A program made the translations under genes and the position numbers. A stretch of 64,000 nt of DNA from Microthyrium microscopicum. Taxonomy: Eukaryota. The stretch is from the NCBI GenBank assembly GCA_010405405.1, contig MU004236.1:570576-634575 (forward strand), written 5' to 3'. Positions 35,590-63,692 of the stretch are shown in pieces; the first letter of the stretch is position 1; each line of letters begins with the position of its first letter. The notes under the pieces were generated by a model. That model saw only the letters and a list, made by a program, of their open reading frames with translations, was not told the origin of the DNA and ran no database searches.

Positions 35590-37311
35590 ATGATCTTTGA
35601 AATAGCTCTCGTTTTCGCCAGTATTGGCTGTGCCCAAGCCTCTTGGATTGATGGTGCATGGCTAGGAAAGCGACAGGCTACAGCGACCAGCGCTTCCAGC
35701 ACCGCTACGCCAGCATATTTCCAAACTGTGCCAGAACTTCTTGCTGGTAGGTAGAAACAGCATCATGTTATTTGACTCTCCTCTAACAGCTCCATAGGAC
35801 CCACGCCGACAGGAGATGCTCCATTTCTTCCAGAATACAACCCAGCACCATTTCCATCAGTGTCATACATTCCACCACAACCTCTGGAAACTCAAGTACC
35901 AATCTCTGGAAATACTGCAAACAACAATATCTTTCAACTGTTTGGCCAGCTGAGTCATTATTTTGCCAATCCTACAGGATTTGGTGCAAATGAATATCGC
36001 CTTCCTGCAGGAGCCAACATTTCGGCCGTCTATACTCTACATCGCCATGGAAGCAGATACCCAACAACAGGCAGTGGAGCTCCAACTACTGGTGCGAAGA
36101 TTATCAATGCTACAGGAACATTCAACGCCACTGGTTCGCTGGCATTCTTGAACACCTGGAAATATCAGCTCGGCGCTGAAATTCTGGTTCCAATCGGCAA
36201 GCAGGAACTGTTTGATAGTGGTGTCTCTCACTACTACAACTACGGACATTTGTATCCTAACAATGGCTCCAAGATCATTGTTCGATCAACAACTCAAGAC
36301 CGTATGACTCAGTCTGCTGAGTACTTCTTGGCCGGATTCTTTGGCCTAACATGGACCCAAAATGCTACTCTAGAGCTCATCATTGAACAGAATGGATTCA
36401 ACAACAGTTTGGCCGGATATTATGATTGCCCAAATAATAACAATGCCACCTTGGCCTATGGTAACCTTGCTTTGACCCAATGGTCAAACATCTACCTTGC
36501 CAACGCCACTTCCCGAATCAACTCTATGATCAGTGGAAAACTAAACTTTACTGTATCCGATGTCTACAATATGCAATCTCTCTGTGCTTATGAGACTGTC
36601 GCTCTTGGTTACTCTCCGTTCTGTGGTTTATTCACCTATGACGAATGGCAAGGATATGAATATTCTGTTGATATCAACTTCTACGGAAACAACATGTTCG
36701 GTGGTCCTTCTTCCCGAGGAACTGGTATCGGTTGGGTCTTGGAGACCGTTGCTCGAATTCAGCACAAGTTCGTTTCTAGTGCTCAGGGACCACTCAATTA
36801 TACCCTTGACAGCATGGCCAGCACATTCCCAACAAATCAAGCTTTGAACTTTGACTTCACCCACGACACCAACATTGCAGCAATTCTGACAGCTTTCGGC
36901 CTCACTCAATTCGCTCCTTTCTTGCCAGCCACCGCAATCCAGAACAACCGCTCCTTGATCGTTTCACACATGGAGCCATTCGGCGCTCGTCTTGACATCG
37001 AGATCATCCAAGCACCAAAGCCAGTCTCAGCATCCCGCAATGGTACCGCTGCAACGGATTATGCAAGTGGCAACGCCACAACCTACGTGCACTTCCTCTT
37101 GAACCAGCGTACCATCCCACTTGGCGCCAGCTGGTCACAATGTGGAAACCGAACGGATGGTTGGTGCGAAATGGGAGCTTTCTTGAACACCATGTCGACC
37201 AAATTCACCGAGAGCCAGTTCCAATACGCTTGCTTCGGAAGTTACCCTAACGTCACCTACTCCGCCAGTGGAGTAACAAATGGTGTTCCTCAGGTCCCTC
37301 AAAAGAAGTAG
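35590..37311 (+). CDS. Secreted histidine acid phosphatase / 3-phytase-like, 2 exons
   Basis: Signal peptide, KR|Q Kex2-like site, YFQTVPELLAGPTPTG, catalytic RHGSRYP and THD motifs, many N-glycosylation sequons. Confidence 0.93.
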
Positions 37312-42376: not shown

Positions 42377-43963
42377 TCACGAAGAGATCGGCAGACTTGA
42401 AATTATCTTTTTCAGGTCCCAAATAGACTCTGGTGTTTCTAATGATTCAAAGCGAGTCGCACGAACCTCTCCTTGGGGACTTGCTGGAGCGCTCGACCAC
42501 CGATGTCCCGTATATGTGTAGAGAAACTCATACACAACAGAAGTATCTCCGGGATTGCGAAGAACTACTCCAGTCAGCTTTTGCCAGATCTTCGACGACT
42601 GTTCCCGAAAATTGATGAAGCATTGACGCCGGAACCTGGAAGGTTGCGAATAATCAAGCATGATGATTTCTTTGGGCTTCAATGTGAGAGAGTATCGGGC
42701 GATGCTGAACGGCTCGGTCAATGCAAACAGAACGCAAGACTGTCCAATATCCGCAGATACAATCCATTCATTAGTCGGAAACTTCTTGGCATAGTGTGCG
42801 TAGACTGGCTTGCCATCGTATGGGCCGGGGACATTGTTGTGAATCGTGGAATCGAAGAGTTTCATAGCAAAGTCGGGAAAGATGCTCGCCACGTCGCTAT
42901 ATGAAAGATTCAGCATTGCTTCAGCTTTTGTGTCGTGCTGGCCCATATTGATGACAAGATTATTGATCTGTTTCAACGTCCAGCCTTGGTTGCTAAGGTA
43001 TTGGAAAAGCACTGCTGCGCCATAACTCTGCTTAAAGAGAGATTCGGAAGGAAGATAAGACACAATGGAACCTTTGCCCGGTACTTGATGTCGAGGGACG
43101 GCTTGTCGGCTAAAAAACTCAGCTGCCCCTTCCAGCCACCACTGAGTCCAATCCCCGCCGTAAAATTTGAGTTTCCAGGAAAACTGAATGCAATGATAAA
43201 ATTCGTGGGCAACAACAAGGTGTAATTCGATGTCTCGAGTCGCCTTCTTAGGTCGCTGCGCAATCGTGACGTTGAAGCTCTCACACTGCGTGTCACTTTT
43301 CTTATAGTCTCCTAGGGATATTCCTGGTTGGGCATGGCCAAGTACGCCTTTTACGGCTACATCAGTGTAGAGTATTCTGATTAGTGACGGACCCGAGTCA
43401 TTGAATAATCCATCAAACGTCTTGAGGGCGCGAAGAGATCCTCTTTGAATCGATTTGACTGCAGCCAAAGGATCTTCGACTTCAGGGGGGCTCACCGCCC
43501 AATTTGCTACGGAATGCCATACTTTGATGGGGAAGCGATCATGGACTTGGAAGAGAGTACATCCGTTTCTCGAGCATTGATGGGGTAGGTAAACGTAAGC
43601 TTTGGTCAACTCACAGCTACCTGGATCAGAAGCTCCGCTGACGGGGCCTAGAAGAGTGGCTCCGTTCTCGTGGTCTGGATGAGTTGTTCCTTTCTCGGGG
43701 TCTGGATTGGATTTCTTTTTCTTCGAGGCGCGATCAAATTTCCCTTTCTTCGAGGCGCGATCAGATCTCCCTTTCTTGGAGGCACCATTAGATTTCTCTT
43801 TCTTGGAGGCGCCATCAAAGTTCTCTTCCTTCCAGAGGCTGACAAATAGCATGACTGATAGCAGCAGGACACCGATGAATGTCCAGGATTCCTCAAATGA
43901 CTTGAGCGATGATAACATCTTGAGCAACATATGTGTGATGGACATGCTGAAAGCGACAAGCAT
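42377..43963 (-). CDS. Intronless putative gluzincin-type zinc metallopeptidase with N-terminal membrane anchor, paralog A
   Basis: First ATG at 43963; hydrophobic N-terminus; AHEFYHCIQF followed ~20 aa later by WWLEGAAEFF (HExxH plus ExxA third ligand). Confidence 0.7.
   Translation of the reverse strand: MLVAFSMSITHMLLKMLSSLKSFEESWTFIGVLLLSVMLFVSLWKEENFDGASKKEKSNGASKKGRSDRASKKGKFDRASKKKKSNPDPEKGTTHPDHENGATLLGPVSGASDPGSCELTKAYVYLPHQCSRNGCTLFQVHDRFPIKVWHSVANWAVSPPEVEDPLAAVKSIQRGSLRALKTFDGLFNDSGPSLIRILYTDVAVKGVLGHAQPGISLGDYKKSDTQCESFNVTIAQRPKKATRDIELHLVVAHEFYHCIQFSWKLKFYGGDWTQWWLEGAAEFFSRQAVPRHQVPGKGSIVSYLPSESLFKQSYGAAVLFQYLSNQGWTLKQINNLVINMGQHDTKAEAMLNLSYSDVASIFPDFAMKLFDSTIHNNVPGPYDGKPVYAHYAKKFPTNEWIVSADIGQSCVLFALTEPFSIARYSLTLKPKEIIMLDYSQPSRFRRQCFINFREQSSKIWQKLTGVVLRNPGDTSVVYEFLYTYTGHRWSSAPASPQGEVRATRFESLETPESIWDLKKIISSLPISS
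43715..43818 (-). repeat. Coding 27-bp tandem repeat (~4 units) in paralog A
   Basis: Encodes DGASKKEKS-NGASKKGRS-DRASKKGKF-DRASKKKKS. Confidence 0.8.
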
Positions 43964-45432
43964 TATGATCGCGAGGAAAGGGCAATTGCTGACTTGTGGA
44001 CTGTATATTGAAACCACAGGATTGGTGTCAATGTGGGTTTTGGGTATAGAGAGAGCTGAGGAGCCACGGTCCTATCATTGTCTGACTATATACTTTGGGA
44101 ATCTCAGCTGCCTGGCGAGCATCACTCGAAGTGACTGGAGACTGCACCTCAGATAGTCGGGTACAAAGACATGGTTCGTGTTGCATGTTGCTCACTTGGA
44201 GATTATGTCTTTAATGCTCAGAGTGACTGATATTCACCTTGCCTGCTGAGGTTGATAGAGGCATTGTCTTTGAACAAAGACATTGTTCTAGAACCATGAT
44301 CTTTTTGTACTTTGTGGTATTAGCTTAAGGGAATGGGAGAGTTGATGTTCGCACACGCGAGCGTGGGCATAATAGTGTATTCTGCATTGCATTCTATAGA
44401 TCCACGTAACTCATGACTAGTAAGAACACTGACCACGAGCAGGTAAAAGGAATAGCATGGTCTCCTCGACTTAGTTGGCTGGCTCTTTATGAAAAGTCAA
44501 GGATGAGCTCTTTATATACCGCAATGCTTAGAGAAACAACATGTGGGCTATGCCGGTCGTCCAGCCCAGCGTTCAGTCGCACTCTTATAAAGAATAACAG
44601 GTCAGCTCTGGGAAGTGATACGTGATGACCGACACCATAGTCCACAGTTTTCTCAAAACAAAGCCTAGAGAACAAAGCTGATAGCAAAAGAGCTATATGG
44701 GTACCACGCTTCTATAAAATTGTTAGCAATGAATATGATTAAGATAGTGTAGATTAAGAACAGAGGTGAGAAAGAACATAGCAGTTTCTAGAGATTGCTC
44801 ACATCACAGTGGCATGATACGGCGAGTGTACTCGAGATCCTGATCCACTGGTCTCTTATCGTTGGCACATTGAGATTTCCACTTCCTACAATCGATTGCT
44901 TACATAGTTGAGAAGTACCGAAACATTGACCAAGCAAAGAACGCTGTTAGTCCATCATATTTAGCACATCAAAATATGAAACGATCAGGCCTATATCTAG
45001 GTTGTTTCCCATTTGTAACTTGCAGCTATTGATAATAAAATTCCAGTCCTATTTCTAACTCGGAATCCGATTCCACGAAGAGACCAAGCTCGAATCTGCT
45101 GTGATGTTTTGTCAACTTCTGAAAGTACTGATGAAACCTCTCCTCCAGTATTAGGCGGTCTGCCTATTATATTGTGTTGGCAATTGTAACTCATGTTCTA
45201 TGAATGGGGACGTATGACTGAGACACGGGGCCCGAAACCATGCCAGCGATCTGCGAAGAGCATGCATTGACGACAATAGCTCATCTCCAGTCAAGATGGA
45301 CGCTGCAACTGAATTTATGAAGCGCTTCATGAGATCCACGAACAGTGTGCTCTCAACAAATGCAGCATGGCGATATTTTTCAAACTAGGATAAAACGTGA
45401 TAGAACATCATTGAGCGACAATCCACTCCTCA

Positions 45433-46911
45433 CTACCAGAAACGCCAGTCACGGGTACCGATTGGCTTGCGAATTTGGTTTTCAATCACTACAAGACCAG
45501 GGAAAGTCTGTTTGACGCGGGTAGCGTGGATTTTCACCCGCGGAGCCTCCGAAGCGGAGAGATTGCCAGTATAGGTGTAAAGTAAATCATACCCGACAGA
45601 GGTTTTATCATCAGCTTCAAGAATGGCTTCATCAAGGACCTGCCAGTTACGATCCAAGCGTTGACGAAATTGGATCAAGCATTGGCTGTGGCAGATATCC
45701 GGTTGCTTGTACTTCAGCTTGATTGTTTCATTTGGCTGTACCCAGAGAGAATAGCGAGCAATGCTGAACGACTCGGTGGAAGCTTCCAATGAGTATTGCT
45801 CAACGTTGGCAAGTCTATTCCATCTACTCCATACGTTGCGGGTGAACCGCTGGTCGTAGTCCGACCGCACTGGCTGATGGTGTGACCCTTGTGCGTCGTA
45901 GTAAATCGCCGAGTCAAATAGTTGTGCAGCGAATCTAGGAAACAGGCCAGCCAGGTCGCTATGGGCAAGACGGTTGATAGCTTCCTGCTCGTCTTTCAGT
46001 TTTTCCGCACTGTTTCCTAAGCCGTCGATCTTCTTGAACGACCAGCCTTGATTGCTAAGGAACTGGAAGAAGATTCCTGCATCATGCCTATGGCGGTAGA
46101 GAGGCTTTTGCGGATCGTATACATCAAACCAACTTCTGAATGTTCTACAACCTGGAGAGACTTGTTCGCCGAAGAACATTGCTGCTCCTTCAACCCACCA
46201 TTCTGACCAGAGCTCAATAGGTTGCATTTGATGAGATTTCTCGAGGTTGAAATACTGAGTGCAATGATAAATCTCATGCGCGATTATGTGTTGTAAGCAT
46301 ATGTCACGAGACAAGTCGTTGGGTCGAGCAAATACCGCAACCTCGCAACTCTCTAGATCGAGCTTTCCAGGAATGATCGTCAAGGTTCTCGGGTGCAATC
46401 CTTTCATGGTATGTCCCGCAGATGCATGGCCTGAGCTATCACTTCTAATGCTGACGTCGGTATAGAGTATTCTAATTGTCTTAGAGCTCAAGCTTGGTAT
46501 CAATCCATCGAAGGTTTGGAGAGCAGCGATAGCTCCATTTTCGACCGAAGTCATTGCAACTGAATGGTCCGCGTAGCTCAGATGACTTAGCGACCATTCT
46601 GGACTCCTAGAATGCCATAATCTGACAGGGTAGCTGTCGAGTCTCGACCAGAACGCACAAATGTGGTAGCTTGAAGTATGTTGTACGTAGGAAAAGGATG
46701 TACATCCGGTTCTAGTGAGTATGTCCCACTGATTTCGACGGGAAACTTCTCCTATGAACGGCTTGGTTGATGCTACTGGTAAGAGGTAATAAGCTGTTAG
46801 GTTGTATACGATCAAGCCGACAGTGGCGCATGTGAACAAATAAAGCCAATATCTTAGCAAGCGATCGATGATGCGACCAAAGCGTCGTACGATGTCCATG
46901 AAAGAGGGCAT
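45433..46911 (-). CDS. Intronless putative gluzincin-type zinc metallopeptidase with N-terminal TM helix, paralog B
   Basis: TM WLYLFTCATVGLIVYNLTAYYLL; AHEIYHCTQYF and WWVEGAAMFF. Shares ALxTFDGL, IRILYTDV, FQxLSNQGW, FSIARYSL and LYTYTG with paralog A. Confidence 0.72.
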   Translation of the reverse strand: MPSFMDIVRRFGRIIDRLLRYWLYLFTCATVGLIVYNLTAYYLLPVASTKPFIGEVSRRNQWDILTRTGCTSFSYVQHTSSYHICAFWSRLDSYPVRLWHSRSPEWSLSHLSYADHSVAMTSVENGAIAALQTFDGLIPSLSSKTIRILYTDVSIRSDSSGHASAGHTMKGLHPRTLTIIPGKLDLESCEVAVFARPNDLSRDICLQHIIAHEIYHCTQYFNLEKSHQMQPIELWSEWWVEGAAMFFGEQVSPGCRTFRSWFDVYDPQKPLYRHRHDAGIFFQFLSNQGWSFKKIDGLGNSAEKLKDEQEAINRLAHSDLAGLFPRFAAQLFDSAIYYDAQGSHHQPVRSDYDQRFTRNVWSRWNRLANVEQYSLEASTESFSIARYSLWVQPNETIKLKYKQPDICHSQCLIQFRQRLDRNWQVLDEAILEADDKTSVGYDLLYTYTGNLSASEAPRVKIHATRVKQTFPGLVVIENQIRKPIGTRDWRFW

Positions 46912-47115
46912 ATCTGTGGCTCAGAAGTGATTGGCAAGAAATCCGAATTGCAAAACTGGCGGTGAGATGGTTTCGCGGGTACTTGAGAGTGTTGGAGCTG
47001 TTTTAAATCGGGAGCTATACGCTAAGACAATATATCCGGGAGAGAATGACAGTTACCTTGCAGACACGAGTAACATTGATCGGAGTGAAAGGAGACTTCA
47101 CCTCAGAACTGTCCA

Positions 47116-47217: not shown

Positions 47218-47426
47218 GATAGACCTCTACCGGAGTGACAGGAGACTTCAGATCAGACCTGTCCCATACAAAGATATGAATGGCTTTGTACTTTCTTTCT
47301 TATGCACAATGGTATTGTGTCAAAGACAGCGTAATGACAGTTAAGACATGAATATATCGCATCACGTCCTGGAGGTATCAAGCCCCTATCCCAACACCCG
47401 CATACATTCTAGACAGTATTTTAGCA

Positions 47427-48014
47427 ATGGACCAAAGCATAGATTACACAGAGCTCTTGGGACTCGAGCTAACCTATAACCCAGATGGGCTCCTGAAATG
47501 CATAGGAACCCGCGATGTCAACGGACAAGAAGTACCATGCCCCAACCTTGCCCAGGGAACTTGGAATCCAGCCCAAATCCAAGGCTACTGGAAACGTTGC
47601 GCCGAGGATCCCATTCCCGACGAACCAATCCCCGGATACGAAGATCGCTACTACAACATTGGACAGTTCGTCTACACCTTGTTCTGCCTAGACGATGAGT
47701 GCAACGAAACACGGTGGTTTATCTACAAAAAGGTAACAGCCAGGTGGCAGACGCTCGGAGTAATTCTTCGCAAGCGAGGGCTTGCAGCCCACAAGCCAGT
47801 CGGTGCTGACGATGAGTGTCCTATTTGCCGTGAGGATATGGCAAATGAAGGAGAGCTGACCTGGTGTAGCAAACAGTGTGGAAACAACTTCCACAAGGAG
47901 TGTATTGATGAGTGGCATCATGTTTCCAACACAAAGACTTGTCCTTTGTGTAAGTCTGCATGGAGAGGCATTCAATGGTTCGATTATTTGAAAATGTCTT
48001 TCAGCTGGATTTGA
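47427..48014 (+). CDS. RING-finger protein (putative E3 ubiquitin ligase), intronless
   Basis: C-terminal CPICREDM...LTWCSKQCGNNFHKECIDEW...TCPLCKSAW; N-terminal CIG...PCPN motif. Confidence 0.82.
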   Translation: MDQSIDYTELLGLELTYNPDGLLKCIGTRDVNGQEVPCPNLAQGTWNPAQIQGYWKRCAEDPIPDEPIPGYEDRYYNIGQFVYTLFCLDDECNETRWFIYKKVTARWQTLGVILRKRGLAAHKPVGADDECPICREDMANEGELTWCSKQCGNNFHKECIDEWHHVSNTKTCPLCKSAWRGIQWFDYLKMSFSWI

Positions 48015-48311: not shown

Positions 48312-49332
48312 TCAAACCTTCTTTTGAGAGTTTCGGTGAGACATCTGGTCCCACCAATATACCCCCTTCTTTTGCTCATCATCAGCTTTCTTCTCGTCGT
48401 TTCCAGCGGTACCTGAGTCATTTGGATCTTTGGAAATGATCTTTTCCACCTGTTCTACAGCTCTTTCAATCTCAACTGCCATTTCTTCGACGCCATATGC
48501 AGTCGCAATGGTTCTCCCACTGTTTATGTTCAGAAGCAATACATCAGCCTCTCCGCTTTCTAGACGCTTCTTGGCGTCCAACTCGGCGTTTATGGCAGAT
48601 CCATCGGCATCTGGAAATTCTTTGGTGTAAATATCATCCAGTTTTGGGGAAGCTTTGGCTGTGAACAGATTGTTCTTGACCAGAAATTCTAGATGCCGTG
48701 AGCCGAACAGAGCTCGATAATGTGACCATGCTCGGAACAACAGGTAGAAGCCGGGTATGTTTGGAATTCTGCAATCTGTTAGTCTTTGATATGGAGTAGC
48801 AAGAATGGGAGACAAACACTGGCAAAAGCGCAAATGGCAGTGTCAATGGTGCTCCTATGCCACATTGTATCATACGCGTCCGATGTAAATCCTGTCTCTC
48901 TGTCGCCAGTTTCCGTAAAATCTCAGGCACTTCAGCACGCGCCAGGAACGTAGGTGGAAAGAAAACAGGAACTGGGTTCTGTCCATATTTCACGAGCAAC
49001 TCCTCCTCGCGCTTCTGACTATGTGGCGGTATGCTTTTGAGTCCCCATTCTTGGTATGGTATTCGACGCAGGGCAGCGTTGCCATATGTAGTGAGGGTTT
49101 TACGCCAGCCTCCGTCGGCCTTCTCCCATGTTGTCCATGTTGTTGCCGCCTTGTTGGTTGCGCGGTCTACGAGGTTTGAGATCTTTGCAGATGCTGATGT
49201 GTCTGGCGGTGTCTGAGTTTTCGTATTATCGCCGGGGCCATTCTGGAGAGCTTTTAGAGCAGCGGGTTTGAACTGTTTGTCGCAATAAATCAAGGTCCGA
49301 CGCGCCGAGATGGGGAGGAGAAAGAGCCGCAT
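48312..49332 (-). CDS. Mitochondrial K+/H+ exchange-related protein (Mit_KHE1, YDL183C-like), 2 exons
   Basis: MRLFLLPISARRTLIYC, KAATTWTTWEK, RIPYQEWGLKSIP, PLTLPFALLPV-IPNIPGFYLLFRAWSHYRAL, EIERAVEQV. Confidence 0.85.
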
Positions 49333-49779
49333 TGGAGCCAAGCGTATGATGCAAAAAAGAGGGAAGTGAACCCTCAATGGGCTGTGGAGAATATCAAAAG
49401 GTCCAGTACTGAACGGACGGGCATGGCATAAACAAGGAAAAGGAGAAGTTGATGATGGGAATTTGTTTGGGGCCTTGGAATCTTTGACATGACGATGGTG
49501 GTTAGATCTTTGCAGGGATCCCTGTCCAGGATTTAAACAGGGATGGTCGATCTGGCTAGGCGGAAATCATCAACATTCAACCTTGGAAATTCAACACTAA
49601 GTCTATCACGACCAACAACGTGATCTTGAATTGTGGACCATACTCCAACCTCTCTCTCCGCCGCCACGCGTCCTCTCACAATGCCCAGATCATGACACGA
49701 GAACCTCGCTCCTCTCTATTATCCTCTCAATACCATCCTAATTCAACCACAACGACCGTCCCTACAAACAACCGCCATC

Positions 49780-51133: not shown

Positions 51134-53996
51134 TCAGCCCTCAGCTTCGTAGTTGTTGCTCTTGTGCTTTGGCGTAAAGCGAAATCCATCATTCGCCTTG
51201 CCCAAGAACATCTCACTAATCTTGATCCAATCCCTATGACTCGCACTCGCCATCAACGTCTCCAGATCATCGCGACCATGATAGGCTGGTGGACGCTCAT
51301 TCATAGCAGGCGGCATATGCTCAAGTAGGCCAATCGGAATATAGCGACAGCTGAACGACAACCATTCCAGCAAGAAGCGTCGAGTAGTGCCAATGCCCAT
51401 CTCATCCGAGCCCCAGCACTCGAGACCAAACTTGACGAACTGCTTGATGTATTCCAAACGTTCAGTGGCGCTCTTGTCTAGATACTGGCCAGCCTGGATC
51501 TCCTCAAAGAGCCATGGCTTGATGAGTGCGCCTCGACCAATCATGACAGCGTCGACCTTGGAATCTTTGATATGTTGGTTGTAGACTTCGTGGGAGTAAA
51601 TATCGCCGTTGCCGACAAAGAGGACGCGGCCTCCATTTGGCTGGTCTCGTGCATCAGCTTCGCGGATGGTGTCAGCTTGTTCTGCTTGCTCAGTTCGAAG
51701 ACGTTCGATGAGAGCAGAGCATTCGGCAATGTAAGGCCAGTCTGCAAGGCGAGTGTAGCGCTGCTGTCGGGTACGGCCGTGTAGAGTGATGGCAGCGACT
51801 CCGCAAGGACCTATACCTGACTCAATGGCATCTCGACCGCCTAAGACGAGACGTTTGATTGTGTTCGTAGCGGTCAGGGTTCTATCATGAGTTCCAGTAC
51901 GAAGTTTGGCAGTGATCGGTATTTCACCGGAGAGAGTGTTCATGCCGCGGATGATCTTCTCTAGTTTGGATGGTGCATCCAGCAAGGCGGACCCTGCTCC
52001 GGTTTTGAACAGCATGTCAATTGGACACCCGCAGTTGAGATCGATAGCTCGAACATAAGGGCAAAATTGGTTGAGAACGTCTGCAGCCTTGATTGCAACC
52101 CATGGTTTAGCAGCAGCAACTTGGACGCCAAATCGCATATCTTTCGAGTTATCGTATCCAGGAACAATGTTCGAAGCGTTTTGAGAAACAGTTGGTGGCT
52201 CAATCTCGCTTTTATGTGCTTTCATCAAGGCCCATTCCTTTTCGCCTGCAACAAGTGGAAGACCCAAAGCCATTTCAGAAAAGGTCATCTGAGCTCCCAG
52301 AGAGACACAAAGTCTACGAAATGGAAGGTTTCCTTGAGTCGTAAGAGGAGCCAAAATTGGAGTTTCAGGGCCATAGTAGAGACGACGTTTCTCTGAAGGA
52401 CGGAATGGCGGTTCAGTGTAGGAAGCTCGGTGATCTTCAGCTGCGGTTTTCTTCTCGGAGCTATCTTTAGCCTTCGCCTGAATATCGGATGTGGTGGCTT
52501 GCTTCTCCGCCGGAGTCTCGGCATCGTTGGTCGACTCGCTGATCGTGGCATCTTCCTGCTTTGGAGCAATGGAGGTAGTGTTTGTAGTGCCATCGACATT
52601 ACCCTCAGTCTTTGCTTCCTTGATTGAAGATCGAAGTGGTTCACGGATATTGTCGATTGTTGTGACGCTCCCGTCAGAGGTCTTAGGTCGTTTAGCATTC
52701 TCTTTTCCAGTAGTTGTAGCTTGGGCTGGAGTCTTTTTGGTCAAAGAGTTCCAACGATCAGCGACCGCTTGCTCTTTTTCTGTTAGAGTAGGCTGAATCT
52801 TGTTATGACGTCGGTCCATCTCCTTGTTCCAAGAATCGTTTTCCCATTGGATATATCGGTCCGATTTTGCTAGCACGATCCGACGACGATTGAGATCCTG
52901 AGTATGTTAGTGCAAGTTCAACCAAGATTATACAATAAGCTTTGAGGGGTGTCAGCTTACGATCTTGATCTGGTTGGGGAGGACATTGTAGACATCACTA
53001 TCCTTGCCACGAATTCCACTAGTTGCGCCGCCGGATTTCTGCTCGTCTACAATAAGCACAAGCTCCTTGCGACCATCCTCGTGCTCAACTTCTTTTGAAT
53101 GTGATCCAGCGAAACGACACTTCCATCCAGCAGGGCAAAAGCCTCGAGCATCGAATATGGGGCATTTGCCCTCGAATGTTTCCATGTCCTTGGCTTTGCC
53201 TTCAGCTAGATATTTGCGAAGGTTGTGTTCCAGTCGACAATTTTCGCCATACTGACACTCTCCAGGTGTGAACTCTGGAGAGAGGGCACGCGAGTTGCAG
53301 AGTGATATTTTGTCTCCCCAGGTACCAAATGCGCGCTCTTTGTTTTGACCACCTCCCTTCTTGCGGTCTTGCCAGTTGTCTTTACCACGTCCACCTCGTC
53401 CGCCTCGTCCACCGCGGCCTCCACGGCTTCCATAGGAATCGCGAGACTCGCGAGAATGTTCTTGGCGTTCGGAAGACTTTGCAGCTTCGGCTTCGTCGTC
53501 GTCACGATAGGTAGAAGTTTCAGCCGGAGGGCGCTGTATAAGGAATCTGTTTGTAATTAGTCTATTGGGTGATAAGTCAACTAAGCAAGGGTTGAACCTA
53601 CTCTTGTTTGATTGAGGCTACACCTTTTGGTCTAGAGTCGTTGCGCTCTGGTGGCTTGAAGTCGCTGCTTATTGGATTCAATGCCGAAGTAGCGGCTCCG
53701 TTAAAATTTTGATTATTCGAATGGCTAGTCGAACGACCATTAGATTTGCTGCCCTCCGCATTGAAAGATGCATCCGCAGAGCCATTGGGGTTGTTGTTCT
53801 TCGAGTTATGAGGGGCAGCAGCGGGTGCATTGGCTTCGGTGGACTTGCTCTCAGCCTTCTCTCCCGAATGTGACATTGTGCGTTGGCGCTTAGCTGGCGG
53901 AATGTCAAATTCGACAGAGTCAGAAGCAGGTCTATGATGAGACTCGAGAGAAGGGTTTTGGTGATCGGGTTGCATTTTGTCCTGTGAATTTCCCAT
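51134..53996 (-). CDS. DUS3: tRNA-dihydrouridine(47) synthase Dus3, 3 exons
   Basis: GVASIKQE exon, CCCH zinc fingers ([22 protein letters not shown]), [51 protein letters not shown], terminal FTPKHKSN. Confidence 0.95.
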
Positions 53997-55332: not shown

Positions 55333-55941
55333 ACATGACGAGCTCACCAACACTGGATGATCAAACCCAATGAGCCGGATGAAGCACAAGTGCAATCCCG
55401 AACGATGAACAGTGTCCTACCAAAAGTTATGCTGCGGGCACGTTCATGGATTTGAATATTATAATGGCATTCTAGCCTTTGTTGGAGTTGGGTTACAAAA
55501 GAGCCAAGGCGAGGCTGAATTATACTGTCAGGATTGAAGATGCATTTGATACTGTGTAAAGATACTGGGTGGTTTGCAGCAGGTTCATTGGAACGACTCA
55601 GACAGGAATATGATTTTACTACTTATACCACTATTGCCCTCTAAATTGCTCGACAAAGAACTGTGAGGGCCTGGTAATGTTGTTGTAAAGGCCACGACAC
55701 TGGTCAGCGATACCAGGCAACCAGGTCTAGGCCCTGTCAACCAAACCCTGTCAAAGCTCAAGCTCAGCTCCCCAGACCTTGAAACTTCCAGCATCAACCT
55801 GCAACCATCAACTTTGATCGTCAGGCTTAAATCAGATGTTGCCGAACCCCAATCCTTATATACCCCGACGCGTCCTTATCCTGTTGACATACTTTCCCTT
55901 CATCATTCGCTCATCACTTCTGACGGCTTCACTCCCTCAAT

Positions 55942-57927
55942 ATGGCTTTACCAAACCGCGAATACACAAATTGGCCCAACTCGCTCGAATGTAAACTTCC
56001 ATACGTTCCGCCTCCCAAGGGCGCCAACCCGGCTGTTCGTGGTACCATTTTAGCTGCTGGAGCTCCTCTGGTCGAAACGTTTGGCTTTGTAGCCAAGTAC
56101 CTCTATAATAATGCCGGCTTTAATACTCTTCGCGGCCACAAGGCTCTCAAGGATACGGAGAACCGATGGGATCCAACTGTTACACCATTACCTACAGCTG
56201 AAGAGAAGGACGTGTCAAGCTTGAATTATACTTCTCCCGATACGCTTTCCAAAAGTCTCCTCAATACTACGAATGGCGCGCCATTATATTGGAGTATTCG
56301 CGATTATCATCAGGCCTACAAGTCTGGCGAGATTACTCCAACTCAAGTCGTCAATGCCCTACTTCCTATCATCCGACGAGACGTAGCAAACAGGTCTGAG
56401 CACAGCACCGCGTTTCTCACTACAAAAGTCGACATCGTCCTCGCTGCGGCAGAAGCATCCACCAAACGATGGGCAGAGGGAAAGCCTCTAGGTCTTTTAG
56501 ACGGAGTCCCAGTAGCTGTCAAGGATGAAGTCGAGCTTGCCAACTACCCCCAGACTTTCGGCAGCAAGAAAGTCTTCGTCGCAAACAGCAGCGAAACTAC
56601 CTGGGCTATCCGCAAATGGGAAGAGCTCGGTGCTGTCGTCGTTGGCAAGACAAACATGCACGAAGTCGGCATGGACACCACCAACAACAACTGCGTCACC
56701 GGCACACCCCTCAACCCCTACAACGACCGCTACTACACTGGCGGTTCTTCTGGAGGTAGCGGCTATGCTGTGAGCACCGGTCTCGTGCCGTTCGCTCTAG
56801 GCAGTGATGGAGGCGGAAGCATTCGCATTCCCAGCAACTACTGCGGCGTCTTTGGCCTCAAGCCCTCGCAATCCCGCGTCTCCATTCGACCCTCCGTCAA
56901 CGTCGCCAATTCAGTCGTCGTCGCTGGCCCTATGGCCCCCGACGTGGAATCCCTCGAAGTAGCCTATCGCGTCATGGCCACGCCAGACCCAGAATACTCT
57001 GCCTCCGCACGATTCGCAGCGCCACGCCCACTCTCCGCACCACGCAAAAAGGTCCTAGGAATCCCAACAAAATGGTTCAACCAAGCAGATGAGCCCGTCC
57101 GTGCCGCATGTCAAGCCGCAGTCGACTGGTTCGTCAAAGAAAGCGGCTACACCGCCGTTGACATTGACATCCCACTCCTCAACGAAGGCCAGACCGCCCA
57201 CGCGCTCACCATCCTCCTTGAAGCACGCAACGGCATGCCAGCGCCCATGACCTACTTACAACCCGCAAACCGTATCCTAATGGCATTGGCAAAGGTTGCC
57301 CCAGCCAAAGATCTCTTCGCGGCCCAAAAAGTACGCCAAGTCATCATGCAGCATCTCGCTTACCTCTATGACACCCACGGCCACGACATGATTATCGTGC
57401 ACCCCACAACACCCAACGCTGGATGGTCCCATACGCCCGCTGATCTAAAGAAGGGCATATCAGATGGCGATATGACGCTGAAGAGCATGATGTATGTGTG
57501 GATGGCGAACTTCTGCGGCAACCCGTGCATGCAGATGCCAGTGGGCTTTGTGCCGCCGACAGTGGGTCATGGTGAGATTCCAGTTGGTATCTCGGGGATG
57601 GGTGTTTGGGGTGGAGAAGAGGGACTGATTGAGTGGGCGTACGAGGGCGAGAAGTATTTGCATGAGGTAAGGGCAGGTGGACGGTTGAAGAGCCCGAAGT
57701 GGGTGGATGTTATTGCTTTGGCTAAGGGTGGGCAGGAGAAGGGAAAGGAGTCTGTTGATTCGGTTTCTGGAGCGAAAGAGTCCACAGAGCCCAGTGTTGT
57801 TGCCGAGCCGGCAAAGGTTACTAACGGCGCGAAGACGGAGACTTTTGTGCCTGCGGAGACTGCTGAGACTACAGCAACGAAGACTCCTGACGTCGCGGCA
57901 CCAATTGCAGATGCAAAGGCTGCTTAG
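55942..57927 (+). CDS. Amidase signature family protein (fatty acid amide hydrolase-like), intronless
   Basis: LDGVPVAVKD (Lys), GKTNMHEVG, GGSSGGS, GSDGGGSIRIP (Ser-cisSer-Lys triad), GVFGLKPS. Confidence 0.92.
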   Translation: MALPNREYTNWPNSLECKLPYVPPPKGANPAVRGTILAAGAPLVETFGFVAKYLYNNAGFNTLRGHKALKDTENRWDPTVTPLPTAEEKDVSSLNYTSPDTLSKSLLNTTNGAPLYWSIRDYHQAYKSGEITPTQVVNALLPIIRRDVANRSEHSTAFLTTKVDIVLAAAEASTKRWAEGKPLGLLDGVPVAVKDEVELANYPQTFGSKKVFVANSSETTWAIRKWEELGAVVVGKTNMHEVGMDTTNNNCVTGTPLNPYNDRYYTGGSSGGSGYAVSTGLVPFALGSDGGGSIRIPSNYCGVFGLKPSQSRVSIRPSVNVANSVVVAGPMAPDVESLEVAYRVMATPDPEYSASARFAAPRPLSAPRKKVLGIPTKWFNQADEPVRAACQAAVDWFVKESGYTAVDIDIPLLNEGQTAHALTILLEARNGMPAPMTYLQPANRILMALAKVAPAKDLFAAQKVRQVIMQHLAYLYDTHGHDMIIVHPTTPNAGWSHTPADLKKGISDGDMTLKSMMYVWMANFCGNPCMQMPVGFVPPTVGHGEIPVGISGMGVWGGEEGLIEWAYEGEKYLHEVRAGGRLKSPKWVDVIALAKGGQEKGKESVDSVSGAKESTEPSVVAEPAKVTNGAKTETFVPAETAETTATKTPDVAAPIADAKAA

Positions 57928-58184: not shown

Positions 58185-60113
58185 CTAATACGTTCCCAAA
58201 ATCTCCGGCAACTCATCCCCATCCCTCCTTAAATTAACCGCCGTCGCACTAGGAAACGGATTCGTCTTCGCATAATCATTAACAATCACCCTCTGACAAT
58301 GAAACATGCCAAACACAATCTGATGATACGGAATCCCATGTTCCTCCAACTGCTTCAGCGTCGCCTCTCTAAACGCCTCCGTCCGCGACGTCGTCAAAAT
58401 AATCTGCGTCCGTCCCTTCTCATACAAGCCTCGTAAGTGCTCTACGCTGCGGTTCAGCGGCGGCTTTTGGCCCCATATTTGCCCGAAATAGCCGCCGGCG
58501 TTCTTGACGAGTGTGCCGTCTATGTCGACGAAGAGGGAACGGAAGGTCCGGCAGTACGCTTCCCAGGCGCCGACGGTGCCCCAGTCTTCGTAGGCGTGGA
58601 CGGGGATGGAGAGGAAGTTTAGAGGTTTGGCGTCGGTGGTGGTGGTTATACCGAGCCAGGAGGTTATCATTTTTAGCCATACTACATCAGAGACGGCAAG
58701 TTCGACTTTTGTGGCGTATGAGATTCGTTGGAAATTTCGCGCTTTCGCTACGTGGTCGAGAAAATCTCGTGCCTCTCCAAATGAATATCCACCTACACAA
58801 AAGTTTGGGCCAAGGATGACTTTTTCGACAATGTTGTGGATTACGCCTTGGCGATCTACGTCGGCGTAGGATTTGCCGCCGGGGATGTTGAGGTTTTGCA
58901 TGTCCTTGTCGATTTCGAGGGTGGCGATTGCGTCGACGCCGGGGATGGCGCAGGCGAATTGGTTGTCGCAGTCTTTGAGGAAGATTGGACCGCTTACTTT
59001 GGCGTGCTTGAGGATACATTCGACGGTTTGTACTTGGTCGATTGTTTCAGTGTCGATTACGACGATTGTTAGGTCGAGGTTTGCGATTTCGGGGGACCCG
59101 TCTTCAAAGGCGCGGATTAGCGCTGAGACGTCGGAGGAGCAGTATTTTTCGACGTGTTCTTTTAGGACGCCGAGGACGATGCGGTGGACTTGGGTGAGGT
59201 TTAGTTTGGCGATGGCGTCGACGACCATTAGCAGGCCGTTGGGCATGGTTAGCAGCCATTTGGGCTTGTGGCCGGGGAAGCGCGAGCTGCGGCCGGCGGA
59301 GGGGATTACGAGGGTGGATGTTGGGGATGAGGTGGACTCGCGCTCGATGCGTGCTGGGCGGGTTACGACGATGGCGCCGGGGATGGGCTTGATGGCTGGG
59401 TGGTTGTCGCGGACGCCGAGATACATTTGCCGGCCAGAGTCTGATCGCTTGTGGCGGTTGACGAGGAGGCCGGTGTCTTCGAGTCTGGTTTCGTTTTTGA
59501 CGGATACTTCGTCTTCTTCGTTGATTGATATATCTTCGAGGGCGGCGAGAGCATCGGCTCCATGTTGGATTGAATCGCCGGCGAGACCATTAGTCTTTGT
59601 AAGGAGGCGCTTTTGGATTGCGAGGAGAGCAGTGAGGGTTGTGAGTTTGGATCGAACTTTGGTAGCTTTTGCTTTGGGGTCGTTGGTTACGGCGTTTGCC
59701 CGATCGAGACTGAGAGCAGAAAGACCGCCTAGGAAGAGGGAGACTGCTCTTGTGCTTGGTGTTTGATCGCTTTCGGGCCATGCGATATGTCGCCGTCCCA
59801 TATCTACAGGAACGTTCTCTGGAAGCCATACTGATTCCTTGATGCTCTTTTGGCCGCTTGAAGCACCGGCAGACGTGGCATTGAGTTTGACAGCCAAGAA
59901 GTTTGCAGTTTCCTCAATTGCCCATTCTAGCTCGTATCTTGAGCAGACTCGAAAGAAGTCTGCAAATGTGAAGCTGTATGATGGCTGTGTCTGTCCGTTC
60001 GTCACTGGACCACCAGACTTGACACCATTTCCATTCAGAAACCCATTTGCGATTTCCATTTTGATAGAAGCACTTCGTTGGCGAGCATCGGTGTCAATGG
60101 TATGACCGGCCAT
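58185..60113 (-). CDS. Fusion protein: unknown N-terminal region + nucleotidyltransferase (NTP_transferase/GT-A fold) + C-terminal HAD phosphatase, intronless
   Basis: LVIPSAGRSSRFPGHKPKWLL (AGxxxRF..PK signature), GPIFLKDCDNQF, NFCVGGYSF, YEDWGT, then FVDIDGTLV (HAD motif I DxD), ILTTSR, GIPYHQIVFG, VIVND. Confidence 0.85.
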   Translation of the reverse strand: MAGHTIDTDARQRSASIKMEIANGFLNGNGVKSGGPVTNGQTQPSYSFTFADFFRVCSRYELEWAIEETANFLAVKLNATSAGASSGQKSIKESVWLPENVPVDMGRRHIAWPESDQTPSTRAVSLFLGGLSALSLDRANAVTNDPKAKATKVRSKLTTLTALLAIQKRLLTKTNGLAGDSIQHGADALAALEDISINEEDEVSVKNETRLEDTGLLVNRHKRSDSGRQMYLGVRDNHPAIKPIPGAIVVTRPARIERESTSSPTSTLVIPSAGRSSRFPGHKPKWLLTMPNGLLMVVDAIAKLNLTQVHRIVLGVLKEHVEKYCSSDVSALIRAFEDGSPEIANLDLTIVVIDTETIDQVQTVECILKHAKVSGPIFLKDCDNQFACAIPGVDAIATLEIDKDMQNLNIPGGKSYADVDRQGVIHNIVEKVILGPNFCVGGYSFGEARDFLDHVAKARNFQRISYATKVELAVSDVVWLKMITSWLGITTTTDAKPLNFLSIPVHAYEDWGTVGAWEAYCRTFRSLFVDIDGTLVKNAGGYFGQIWGQKPPLNRSVEHLRGLYEKGRTQIILTTSRTEAFREATLKQLEEHGIPYHQIVFGMFHCQRVIVNDYAKTNPFPSATAVNLRRDGDELPEILGTY

Positions 60114-61345
60114 TATGGAAGAGGATATACGATGATAGGGATTTGGGATATGTCGTGTGGATGGAATCAGGATCGCTGTCAAGAACAAAGCGGAGTTAGG
60201 CTGATTATTGAAAGTTCGAATGAGTACAAAAAATTTAGAGTATGTGGTCAGGTAATTAGACCGACTGTATTACAGCCTTGTGAGTATCTAAACAAGCAAG
60301 GCGGCCCCTATTCTTCGCTAGTAACCCCTGAAAAGAGGAGTTGGAAAAGTCTAGAATCCTTCCACACTAAATTCTAAAGCGAGCTACGACTTGGCTGTGA
60401 ATTAAAATTGGCTTACGACTTCTCCACTGAAATGTCAAATGCGTCGTCGTCACCAATATAGAAATAAAAAACCTTAAAAAAGAACGAGAATACGGGTGTA
60501 CAAGTACAATGAAACATGAAGCTTTCCCAGAGACCAGGAATGGTATTGGTGACCATATTTGGTGTATCATACCACGCAGTGAAACCCTCTCCCTTCGACG
60601 TTGTGTAATTCCGCATGACTGTCCCTCACATCAGGCTATCGGCAAGGGAACAATGAAGTGACAAGAGCCTGTTTTTGCAAATTTTATGTCGCTCACAATG
60701 ATCACAGTGATCAATCACGGAGTCGCCGGAGTGAATGAACATCGAAATCAGTCCACACAACGGCAGCACAAACAGAAAACTATTCTCACACGGTGCTTTT
60801 CCTACCGCTCAAATACTGGCAGGATGTTCTGTCTTGATCTGCTGGAATAATAAGGGGAACGCTTTGTTAAGAACTCAAGTTGGACACGCTGTAGCTTTTG
60901 GATGGACGCCACGTTTAAGGCTGAGAAGCATTCCACTCCCACGCAAGTTCATTCGCCGAAACTACTTCCTTGTATCAATATTGGGATCGCACCAAACTGA
61001 ATCCGGCAGCGAGGGAGATCGGGTAGCAGGGGATTAAACCAGGAATGGAAGCATGGCGTGCATGGCTTGCACAATTAGACATGATTTGTTGTCGGGCTGT
61101 TATTTTTTTTGATACCGTATCTATCCACCGCTACTCTTAATTTGGTTCCGTTTCTCGTTGCGCGCTAGATTTATGGCTTTGATCTTTGACTTGGAAGGAA
61201 GATGGCCAGACCGCTTTGACTTTTAAAGCTTTCTATACCCGTAGAATCAAAATTTCCTCGAGATTTTGCAATACCTATCCCAACAAACGATTTACGACTT
61301 TCTATCTGGACCTTGGCAATTTCTCCGGCTTCAAAGATATCCAAC

Positions 61346-63692
61346 ATGGCTCCTGGCGCAATTGCAATCACTACTTCACTTCCTCCAGCTACGTCTAATG
61401 GTCTAGCCAAGAAAGGAAGGATAAGGCATGGTAGTGTTGGTCAAAGAGAAGCAGAAGCACATGTTCCTACTCTCAAGAATCAGGGAAAATCTGATTGTGC
61501 TGTTCGAATTATCGGCATAACAGAGGTCAAGGCTGGAATTCCAACAGAGAAGTTATCAAACTCGAAAAACGGTGAATGTAAGCTGTCAATTTCATTGTCG
61601 CAATTGAAGTCTACCTAACAATTCCTGCAGTTTGGAAAGATCCAGAGATCAATTTGATATTATCAAATGCTGGATCAACTGTCCAAGTGTCCCCAACTTC
61701 CTCAAGTTTTGCGATCAAGCGGTCAAGAGCTTTGCAGGCCAAGAAAGAATCGCGGCGCCCAGCACTTACCATGCGAACAAGTTCTTCGCAAAATGTAAAG
61801 AAATTTCACTACGGTGGTCCTCACGTAGTCGCAAATGACGCTACTGTTCGTCGCTTAACCTCTGGCATGTGGGCTGTTCGAAAGGAAGCCTTTGTCGGCG
61901 CCAAGCAAGATGGTGGACGACTTCTCAAGCAGATTGAAAAGCAAATACTCTTCTCTTCGCGATGCCGGACTGGTAATTTGCAGTATGTCAGTGCTCCGGA
62001 AATCTACGGCATCAACCTTCCAGGAAAGGATGTAGCAGCTGGAAGCATTGGAATCGACATGGAATACATTCCGTTCAGCGATGCAAAATTCATCATGCTC
62101 GAGAAGGATCGTGCAACCAACGAGTGGGTAGCTGAGACTGCCATTGAACTTGTGGACTATAACTTTTCAATGAGCAAAACGGCACCTTTGGGAGAACTAC
62201 TTCCAGAATTCGAGAAGAAAGCTCTCAGTATCAAATCCGCCATGTTAAAATCTAAAATGGTTGCCGACAACGAGGCCCTTTTGGTCACACATCAAATAGA
62301 CCGAGTTTTGGAGCATTATCGTCAAATGCCCTCCGCCGAAGTTCCTGTGGGATTCTGTCATGGAGATTTAACATTGGCCAATATGCTGATCGATCCTGAG
62401 AATCGAGAGTTGTGCGTCTTTGATTTCCTCGACTCCTTTGTGGTAAGTCCGTTGGTGCAACAAATAGTCGCAAACTAATCATTTTAGGAATCGCCGTTAC
62501 AAGATATTGCAAAGCTTCTTCAAGATGTTCGTCATCAGTGGTTTCTGACACAAACAACCGTGCCTGAAGATCGTAGACCTCGCATGGTTTCACTGCTCTC
62601 CATGTACTACGAAAAGGTCAAAGCCGCATATTGCGACTACGCTCTCTGGGATCTTGTTCCACTTTTTGAGTTTTTCTGTCTTGCACGCATATTGCCTTAT
62701 TTCACCGAACTGAAAGAAAAGCATTGTATCCTGAACGGACTGGAGCGCATTTACAACGATCTCTTCGGCGACCTGGATTCGAAACGCGCCAACGAGCTAC
62801 TTGAACCCCGTCATGTAGACTTGGAGCGGCCATACTCTCCTCATGATCGTAAAGTCACTGTAATTGTGCCAGCGCTAGGGCCTGCCATGGAAACACAATA
62901 CGCATCTGGATCAGTCAAGCTTCTGACGCTTAATGTAGGTCTGCTGTCCATGAAAAGTTGTACATCTCTAACTTCATACAGAGCAACGGGCGCCCAATCA
63001 TTGTCAACAGCATAGCAAGCCTTGATACCACTAATGTATCACGAATCGTGGTTGTGGTATTGAACTCACTGGTAGAGACCAAATGTGGCTCAACAACCGG
63101 TTTTGAGAATCTCTTTGATGGCCTTGAAGCATGCAAAAGAAGTAAGATGGAGTTCATCTATTCTTCAACACAGTCATCCGATGCTTGCGAGTCCGTAACA
63201 TTGGCCATCCATGAGGCCAAGATCACCGGTCCAATCTTTATCAAAGATGCAGACAACGACTTCAAGACTGAGGTCATGGATGGCAACTACGTCAACTTTA
63301 CAAGTGTAGTACGCGAAGATCACCCAGCAAACCCATGGCAACAATCACTACGACCAGACCTCGTGGATGCTATGAAGAAGAGTTACGTTTCATTTGTGTA
63401 TGATAACGTCATCTCCAATGTTGCATACGGATCATTCATCTCCTCCAACTTTTGTTGTGGTGGCTGGAGTTTTCTCAGTGCCGGGCTCTTCTTGGACGCT
63501 GTCAACTCTTTGCGCGATCTGCTTGCTACGTCAGGCTTGGAGCATGGCAGTAAACGAGGTGAGTTGCGCGTTGTTGACGTTCTTTGGCAATTGGTATCTG
63601 AAGGCCATCTGTTCTTTGGAATCAAGGCCGAGGACTATCAGGATTGGGGATCGAATGCAGCGTGGCTTGCTTCCATCAATACTCGGCTTTAA
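61346..63692 (+). CDS. Fusion protein: APH/choline-kinase-like phosphotransferase + C-terminal degenerate nucleotidyltransferase-fold domain, 4 exons
   Basis: Introns 61578-61630, 62443-62487 and 62935-62981 join in frame. Kinase motifs VRK, RLLKQIEKQ, MEYI, CHGDLTLANML, FDFLDSFVESPLQDIAKLLQD; then VIVPALG, GPIFIKDADNDF, NFCCGGWSF, YQDWGS. Confidence 0.85.

Follow-up and report, generated by a model that had tools for sequence, protein, structure and literature searches.

Our analysis of a 64,000-nucleotide stretch of Microthyrium microscopicum DNA (contig MU004236.1 of assembly GCA_010405405.1, positions 570,576 to 634,575; hereafter the window, in whose own numbering coordinates are given) reveals a head-to-head pair of genes, A and B, that probably constitutes a laterally related, duplicated, and subfunctionalised bacterial-type module making a nucleotide-activated sugar. 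Judged by motifs, profile matches, and predicted structures, gene A encodes an intact sugar-phosphate-type nucleotidyltransferase (NTase) fused to an intact cap-less HAD phosphatase, while gene B encodes an intact small-molecule kinase of the APH fold followed by a degenerate copy of the NTase domain. Both proteins carry the annotation 'hypothetical' in this fungus. A first-pass annotation of the window, made by a model from the letters, had described the two genes as lying 1.2 kb apart; both are present where it placed them, with start codons separated by a common intergenic region of 1232 bp (60114–61345, ATG to ATG) in which a repeat check found nothing notable. The motifs that it quoted are all there (A contains AGRSSRF, PK, and DIDGT, and B contains HGDLTLAN together with DFLDSFV|ESPLQD, which intron 2 interrupts), as are the three domain types, recognised through Pfam APH and through profile matches to the PDB entry 4evw and to Pnkp1. 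Its interpretation as a whole is partly supported.

Gene A (58185–60113, minus strand) is a single exon of 642 codons plus a stop codon (58185–58187), taken from the list of open reading frames and its translation. The frame is open from stop to stop over 58185–60269 with its ATG at 60113, and the translation is letter-identical to a database protein (P0001). The guanine-plus-cytosine fraction is 0.52 in the gene versus 0.445 regionally, and the region is unremarkable for the window. The NTase domain comprises residues ~262–525 (58539–59330, minus strand), in which a motif alignment locates AGRSSRF, KPKW, KDCDN, KSY, VEK, GGYSF, and DWGT, all intact. In an alignment of 47 homologues, AGxSSRF, PKW, KDCDN, EK, GGY, and DWGT are invariant or near-invariant, and the NTase motifs are likewise invariant or near-invariant in a second alignment of 30 homologues. 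Sugar NTases share a glycine-rich loop, G-x-G-x-R ... K, that binds the nucleoside triphosphate (NTP). In A, the corresponding loop reads SAGRSSRF...KPKW; specifically, the 47 homologues all share A273, S276, F279, P284, K285, and W286, and G274 and R278 are near-invariant among them.

As a single sequence, A scores below the Pfam cut-off for NTP_transf_3 (E 0.012, 16.2 bits versus 27) and returns nothing significant from NCBIfam or from the sequences of the PDB. Bacterial homologues clear the same 27-bit cut-off (36.9, 35.8, 28.8, and 28.4 bits for loci L019, L022, L001, and L002), and a family profile built from bacterial and fungal NTase-HAD proteins matches 4evw over the entire NTase domain with an E value of 2.6e-10. 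The AlphaFold 2 model of A has a mean predicted local distance difference test score (pLDDT) of 82.4 and a predicted template-modelling score (pTM) of 0.83. A Foldseek search with the model returns 4evw first (E 6e-9, template-modelling score (TM) 0.71 normalised to the target), the structure of a Vibrio cholerae 'nucleoside-diphosphate-sugar pyrophosphorylase' for which our literature search found no published function. Other fold neighbours in the PDB are UDP-glucose pyrophosphorylases, YngB, GlmU, RmlA, PntC, and CTP:inositol-1-phosphate cytidylyltransferase (IPCT; TM to target 0.72).

The HAD domain of A follows the NTase domain directly (residues ~526–642, 58188–58538, minus strand) and, having only ~115 residues, is therefore cap-less. 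It contains DIDGT, TTSR, and NDY, and so displays motif I, the Ser/Thr of motif II, and the acidic motif IV of the HAD superfamily. Motif I is kept as DxDG[TV] among the homologues, with the remaining HAD motifs kept too, and D530, D532, R577, N612, and D613 are near-invariant in the 47-homologue alignment. Pfam gives weak matches to HAD_SAK_2, HAD_PNKP, and Acid_phosphat_B, all below cut-off (best E 0.0014; at most 19.4 bits versus 27.5), and profile searches match Pnkp1 (4xrp) with E values of 4.4e-6 for the first profile and 2.7e-4 for the NTase-HAD profile.

Gene B (61346–63692, plus strand) has four exons and three introns and encodes 733 residues. Exon 1 (61346–61577) encodes residues 1–77 plus one nucleotide and includes the kinase N-lobe loop GKSDCAV; exon 2 (61631–62442) extends to residue 348 and includes the kinase core with HGDLTLAN (62359–62382) and DFLD; exon 3 (62488–62934, residues 349–497) takes in the kinase C-lobe and, past a linker, the beginning of the NTase-like domain with the loop ALGPAMETQY; and exon 4 (62982–63692, residues 498–733 plus stop) completes this degenerate domain. 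The positions of exon 1 and intron 1 come from reading the genomic sequence against a database protein of 733 residues (P0111, BT63DRAFT_440515), to which the translation of the kinase exon is 100% identical; introns 2 and 3 have GT..AG borders, and translation across them confirmed both. The loop GKSDCAV was matched by eye to SHSGA of the bacterial kinases and GHSGC of 539-residue forms.

The kinase region of B passes the Pfam cut-off for APH (PF01636; E 5e-7, 30.2 bits versus 23.2). The Brenner motif HGDLTLAN (HGDxxxxN) and DFLD (DFxD) are conserved among 19 homologues, with H321 and G322 invariant and D323, N328, D342, and D345 near-invariant. The AlphaFold 2 model of B is of moderate quality (mean pLDDT 63.1, pTM 0.49), and Foldseek places its kinase region next to maltokinase MaK, glucosamine kinase, MTR kinase, NahK, FN3K, and choline kinase, several of which are anomeric sugar kinases. 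Motifs, family match, and model point to an intact APH-fold small-molecule kinase.

The C-terminal ~270 residues of B are a paralogue of the NTase domain of A (BLASTP of A 253–523 against B 455–731, 27% identity, E 1e-25), and Foldseek again returns 4evw first (E 8e-8, TM 0.64 to target), with TarI among the neighbours. The copy keeps KDADND, KSY, GGWSF, and DWGS. It has lost the arginine of the NTP-binding loop, which reads ALGPAMETQY with a two-residue insert, and it has lost the EK pair, having AYG where A has VEK. Because both are gone, we read the domain as a non-catalytic paralogue that may serve as a scaffold or regulator. The second NTase-fold domain that the first-pass annotation had seen in B is thus a genuine paralogue, but one degenerate at two catalytic motifs, leaving the pair with one credible NTase rather than two. 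In a domain tree, the NTase copies of B form a single long-branch clade (branch length 2.22, SH-aLRT support 100).

Searches with A and with B each scored the 8000 candidates that shared most words with the query, and both lists of homologues are lower bounds: at least 93 homologues of A and at least 64 of B are among the matches listed. Named fungal carriers belong to the Dothideomycetes, the Leotiomycetes, and the lichen-forming Lecanoromycetes and include the chytrid Irineochytrium. Among the matches listed, 10 of 18 fungal B homologues have a longest contig of the same size as that of an A homologue (2415436, 219148, 1490246, 2686473, 142977, 1261071, 208904, 24464, and 32622 bp, plus the window), equal size being taken as the same contig, so that the count is one of shared contigs. 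In Dothideomycetidae sp. 11243, the locus tags of A and B are consecutive (056460 and 056470). Linkage of A and B elsewhere in fungi, which the first-pass annotation had proposed to test, is therefore supported by shared contigs and by one case of adjacent tags.

The nearest relatives outside fungi are bacterial and, by the taxon labels of the Atlas, phage proteins, and the bacterial ones occur as gene pairs in polysaccharide clusters, in agreement with the bacterial or viral relatedness proposed earlier. With the NTase-HAD profile, a search covering one genome for each bacterial and archaeal species gave 26 loci, each encoding an NTase-HAD protein of ~350 residues, in Vibrio, Psychromonas, Burkholderiales, Pelagibacterales, Prochlorococcus, and others. 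A homologue of the B kinase (~280–300 residues) is encoded upstream, on the same strand, in 25 of the 26; the remaining locus breaks off at a contig end, the kinase frame of L023 is split in two, and the kinases of L021 and L024 are cut at contig ends. In nine of the 26, an orthologous extended short-chain dehydrogenase/reductase (SDR) of the epimerase/dehydratase type (by Pfam and NCBIfam), a class that acts on nucleotide sugars, sits between the kinase and NTase-HAD genes.

Pfam scans of the neighbouring genes, which cover 23 of the 26 loci, found waaA, heptosyltransferases, Kdo kinase, O-antigen ligase, glycosyltransferases of families GT2 and GT4, flippases, and capsule/ABC-export and KpsS-like genes, placing the pairs in clusters for lipopolysaccharide (LPS) core, O antigen, or capsule. 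A WavE-family gene (PF07507, 'WavE lipopolysaccharide synthesis') lies within ~5 kb of the pair in 11 of these 23, three of which, all from Vibrio, have it directly downstream (L002:11044–12045, L008:11096–12010, and L009:11096–12016). The WavE-family protein is a candidate transferase for the product of the pathway; the literature search retrieved no function for WavE. In one scanned locus, which is gammaproteobacterial, a gene for a SIS-domain protein (GmhA-like isomerase; L011:6496–7077) lies three open reading frames upstream of the kinase, an arrangement that would fit a ketose-phosphate or heptose-type route.

These bacterial pairs are true homologues of A and B. The core of A is 33–43% identical to the short forms of ~354 residues and shares their motifs, the bacterial kinase is homologous to that of B, and the domain order of kinase, NTase, and HAD is as in the fungal set. 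The fungal proteins differ in that A has an added N-terminal region of ~250 residues, including a folded helical domain, and in that the kinase of B is fused to the degenerate NTase copy and its gene is interrupted by three introns; moreover, genes A and B of the window are divergent, whereas the bacterial pair is co-linear.

The family extends well beyond these loci. In a profile search of the whole library, 588 clusters (50% identity) reach E ≤ 1e-30 and 1960 reach E ≤ 1e-10; the best 150 include 142 representatives that were newly listed, and 128 of these are 320–380 residues long. Structural look-alikes in the Atlas belong to clusters labelled mostly Uroviricota or Pseudomonadota and include clusters of NTase-HAD fusions (PF00483 with Hydrolase_like or HAD_2). 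A curated phage collection contains one near-full-length match (Marine virus AG-345-E15, 36.7% identity) and two partial ones; a role in phage DNA hypermodification was set aside because just one phage match is near full length. A plasmid search gave three weak matches, named 'NTP transferase domain-containing protein', a search of Escherichia coli genomes gave no DNA match to the family, and two cluster records supplied no informative names.

Rearranged fusions, which the first-pass annotation had also anticipated, do exist. The metagenome-derived P0276 (647 residues) is a kinase-NTase-HAD fusion with kinase and NTase motifs intact and with DIDGV and INDF in its HAD domain, in which a motif search did not find the TTSR pattern; P0283 (798 residues), likewise metagenome-derived, has the same domain order, and the NTase-loop pattern was not found in it. 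Approximately 45 non-fungal proteins of 532–569 residues (mostly 535–547) consist of a kinase and an NTase-like domain that lacks the loop motif and keeps EK. Two other metagenome-derived proteins, P0130 (938 residues) and P0131 (920 residues), consist of a kinase, an NTase-like copy, and a further NTase with the loop GGLGSRF; their NTase-like copy keeps an SSRY loop, PKW, and VEK, with KDVHC replacing KDCDN. Kinase, NTase, and HAD are thus genetically coupled in three arrangements: operon, fusion, and divergent pair.

The triple fusions, the kinase–NTase-like forms, and one chytrid protein suggest how the fungal pair may have arisen. The chytrid B homologue P0120 (Irineochytrium, 841 residues) extends ~100 residues past its NTase-like domain. 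In this extension, THWIDLER aligns where A has TLFVDIDG, the aspartates of DxD being gone, and the stretch looks like a decayed HAD domain. A second Irineochytrium protein, P0118 (863 residues), is close to P0120 in length. Together, these forms suggest that A and B descend from an ancestral kinase-NTase-HAD gene that was duplicated and whose functions were then split. On this account, a gene related to those of bacteria and, by Atlas labels, phages would have been duplicated head-to-head in an early fungus, after which the B copy would have retained the kinase and the A copy the NTase and HAD. The domain tree is unrooted and has three clades, with nine sequences that had been entered as fungal A copies (P0084 and P0086–P0093) grouping with the bacterial loci.

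For the present-day enzymes, we propose that the kinase of B adds a phosphate to a sugar, the anomeric position being the most likely site, as it is for the APH-fold kinases MaK, NahK, and MTR kinase, and that the NTase of A then joins the resulting sugar-1-phosphate with an NTP to give a nucleoside diphosphate (NDP)-sugar. The HAD domain of A would remove a second phosphate, either from a precursor (sugar 6-phosphate to free sugar, as MupP does) or from a bisphosphate intermediate (as GmhB does); alternatively, it could draw the NTase step onward by breaking down a phosphorylated by-product. The C-terminal domain of B would act as a non-catalytic scaffold or regulator, in parallel to GMPPA with GMPPB, and the product would feed a glycan or glycoconjugate.

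Several known systems resemble this scheme in part. In the pathway to GDP-D-glycero-alpha-D-manno-heptose, the GHMP-family kinase HddA, the HAD phosphatase GmhB, and the NTase HddC act in series, and the three steps (anomeric phosphorylation, removal of the distal phosphate, and nucleotidyl transfer) and the location in surface-glycan loci are the same as those proposed here. Unlike HddA, the kinase of the A/B set has the APH fold, and its HAD groups with PNKP-type rather than GmhB-type enzymes, the sole HAD-IIIA signal being a weak NCBIfam match in P0086 (E 0.0018); judged from these sequence comparisons, the pair is not a member of the HddA/GmhB/HddC families. GMPPB and GMPPA are a catalytic and a non-catalytic sugar-NTase paralogue. 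Similarly, the NTase of A, predicted to be active, is accompanied by a paralogue in B that has lost catalytic motifs; unlike GMPPA, the degenerate paralogue of B is fused to the pathway kinase.

Pseudomonas has a MupP/AmgK/MurU route to UDP-MurNAc (PMC5371407). A HAD phosphatase, an APH-like anomeric kinase (the folds being those generally assigned to these enzymes), and a uridylyltransferase there turn a sugar 6-phosphate into an NDP-sugar and bypass the mutase; the likeness to A and B is one of enzyme types, and the route differs in that each activity resides in a protein of its own and in that the substrate is a sugar of peptidoglycan, which fungi lack. The first-pass annotation had also compared the pair with Bcb/Ecb capsule genes linked to fructose side branches, and that link is in print: in Pasteurella multocida capsule types B/E, the fructose side chain depends on BcbE and BcbG, with BcbF predicted to take part (PMC13552107). 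A kinship of the Bcb/Ecb proteins with the A/B set, like the domain mix that the first-pass annotation ascribed to them, would be putative. The A HAD gives marginal fold matches to phage proteins that bear the name 'capsule biosynthesis phosphatase' (E 1.1e-3 and 1.8e-3; TM to target 0.52 and 0.45). In NCBIfam, TIGR01689 (EcbF/BcbF) gave no row for A at E ≤ 1 or for the bacterial homologues at E ≤ 0.01, the presence of this model in the library being unconfirmed.

The SDR gene found in roughly one in three bacterial operons, together with the glycosyltransferases encoded around them, speaks for a nucleotide sugar as the product, while the resemblances to LicA, IPCT, and TarI keep a CDP-alcohol as the main rival. 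In that case, to which we assign a minor but appreciable likelihood, the module would activate a phospho- or amino-alcohol, in the manner of LicA/LicC or of CDP-inositol, -ribitol, or -glycerol synthesis, and supply a CDP-linked donor for phosphodiester decoration of a glycan or lipid. Like the A/B set, LicA/LicC combines an APH-fold kinase with a cytidylyltransferase of the sugar-NTase fold and decorates bacterial surface glycans. LicA of Streptococcus pneumoniae is the top solved-sequence match of the bacterial kinase profile (E 1e-5), but the likeness is confined to the catalytic-loop region, which is common to the APH superfamily, and the nearest kinase fold neighbours are sugar kinases. 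Pfam Choline_kinase matches B with an E value of 2e-4, but at 21.2 bits it stays under its cut-off of 29. The N-terminal motif of the NTase scores weakly against the cytidylyltransferases IspD, KdsB, and MocA, and IPCT and PntC are fold neighbours of A as TarI is of B; on the other side, the EK, GGY, and DWG motifs resemble those of the sugar-1-phosphate NTases RmlA, GalU, and GMPP. The bacterial pairs lie in LPS-core clusters, where phosphodiester decorations are common, and in L001 the pair is followed by a gene for an EptA-like phosphotransferase; no LicD-family match is listed among the scanned neighbours of the 23 loci, the SDR within nine of the operons is of the NDP-sugar type, and LicA/LicC is not known to have a HAD partner.

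In a variant of our reading, the HAD domain would hydrolyse pyrophosphate, or some other by-product that carries phosphate, and in this way drive the NTase step, the pathway then running linearly from free sugar through sugar-1-phosphate to NDP-sugar. This variant would suit the position of the HAD domain, which is fused directly behind the NTase throughout bacteria, fungi, and the triple fusions, and it would suit a cap-less domain of ~115 residues, which, to judge by HAD enzymes in general, would probably be too small to enclose a sugar phosphate unaided. The profile matches to a HAD-family inorganic pyrophosphatase (3qub, 3quc, and 3qu2; E 0.56–0.73) are very weak and non-significant, the significant ones being to HAD domains of polynucleotide 3′-phosphatases, and we consider the variant improbable.

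That A and B are neighbours by chance, or share a promoter and nothing else, with B, for example, acting on antibiotics or xenobiotics as an APH-family kinase and A being a hydrolase unconnected with it, is strongly disfavoured and in our estimate very improbable. Such a reading could draw on the database names of the homologues ('aminoglycoside phosphotransferase' for B; 'HAD-like protein' or 'hypothetical protein' for A) and on the unlinked chytrid copies, but B contains a paralogue of the NTase domain of A, and kinase and NTase-HAD are adjacent in nearly all bacterial loci, fused in P0276 and P0283, and linked in more than half of the fungal cases. An RNA or DNA end-healing set (polynucleotide kinase, 3′-phosphatase, and nucleotidyltransferase, of the PNKP or 'Swiss Army Knife' type) is disfavoured to the point of being scarcely credible: the best family and structure matches of the A HAD are HAD_SAK_2, HAD_PNKP, and Pnkp1, but the NTase has the sugar-phosphate NTase fold rather than a polymerase-beta or ligase-type one, the kinase is APH-fold and not a P-loop polynucleotide kinase, and the bacterial context of the family is polysaccharide synthesis.

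Several observations weigh against a duplicated nucleotide-sugar module as proposed here. The fold neighbours of the two NTase domains that belong to CDP-alcohol metabolism make a non-sugar phospho-alcohol possible, and a choline kinase heads the solved-sequence matches of the kinase profile. The nearest solved relatives of the A HAD are polynucleotide 3′-phosphatases (Pnkp1 and T4 PNK), not sugar-phosphate phosphatases, and the HAD step in the pathway is a guess. Pfam and NCBIfam contain no curated family for these proteins, no NCBIfam model scores above cut-off for any member, and literature searches that covered BcbF/EcbF, WavE, and 4EVW turned up no study of the kinase/NTase-HAD family. 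The chytrid A and B homologues are on different contigs; 8 of the 18 fungal B homologues have no contig match among the listed A homologues, a count that means little given how candidates were scored. The unrooted three-clade tree with its long B branch leaves undecided both the history of duplication and subfunctionalisation and an origin of the B NTase copy within fungi. Finally, the 64-kb window contains no SDR or WavE homologue and, as the first-pass annotation had noted, no glycosyltransferase domain among its long open reading frames.

A series of kinase, phosphatase, and NTase is a standard bacterial way to rare nucleotide sugars, and the logic of the proposed pathway is not new. What is new is a family that combines an APH-fold kinase, a 4EVW-like NTase, and a PNKP-like cap-less HAD, for which we found no curated model or studied member; its occurrence in fungi, with introns and fungal-only domains; and a fungal form that looks like a duplicated enzyme whose activities were split over two divergent genes, with a dead NTase kept. 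The family is large and sits in surface-glycan loci of abundant marine bacteria and Vibrio. The identity of the product would name a fungal glycan building block and a bacterial LPS or capsule decoration at once. More speculatively, patchily distributed fungi might make a nucleotide-activated sugar new to fungal metabolism (perhaps fructose or a different ketose, perhaps a heptose or some other rare sugar) by a pathway related to those of bacteria and phages, through an A/B heteromer with a dead NTase as scaffold, for decoration of the wall or of exopolysaccharide, the same chemistry acting on the surface glycans of Vibrio, SAR11, and Prochlorococcus, probably via WavE; we regard this extended picture as a minor possibility.

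The N-terminal region of A includes a helical domain (residues ~45–200, 59514–59981, minus strand) that the model predicts with confidence (pLDDT mostly 80–98) and that is present in fungal homologues only. It has no Pfam match and no look-alike in the Atlas (best TM 0.38). The idea that it is a decayed kinase was dropped: hhalign against both kinase profiles gave probabilities below 1%, BLASTP against B gave only E values of at least 0.9, and the Atlas offered no look-alike. A hidden Markov model of the B kinase region, run against the N-termini of A homologues, matches only P0082 (E 7.5e-9), whose N-terminus is kinase-like.

The remaining genes of the window look like housekeeping genes. Among its long frames, four (487–564 residues) lack a Pfam match, at E ≤ 1e-3 for 42377–44071 and 45433–46920 (both minus strand) and at E ≤ 1e-5 for 30751–32280 (minus strand) and 2437–3897 (plus strand). 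Genes for EMP70 (7307–9127), a class-III aminotransferase (12009–13462), an SNF2 helicase (15182–17632), an RPA43-like protein (20339–21631), and a GH5 cellulase (27167–28248), all on the minus strand, and for a branch-2 histidine phosphatase (35776–37308, plus strand) have no evident link to the A/B pair. Closer to the pair are genes for a RING-H2 finger protein (47352–48014, plus strand), an intron-split Mit_KHE1 protein related to mitochondrial K+/H+ exchange (48312–49566, minus strand), and a Dus3-like tRNA dihydrouridine synthase with a CCCH zinc finger (51134–53617, minus strand). An amidase-family gene (55924–57927, plus strand; Pfam Amidase E 2.5e-72) lies tail to tail with gene A, and its product ends in a low-complexity tail rich in Ala, Thr, and Pro.

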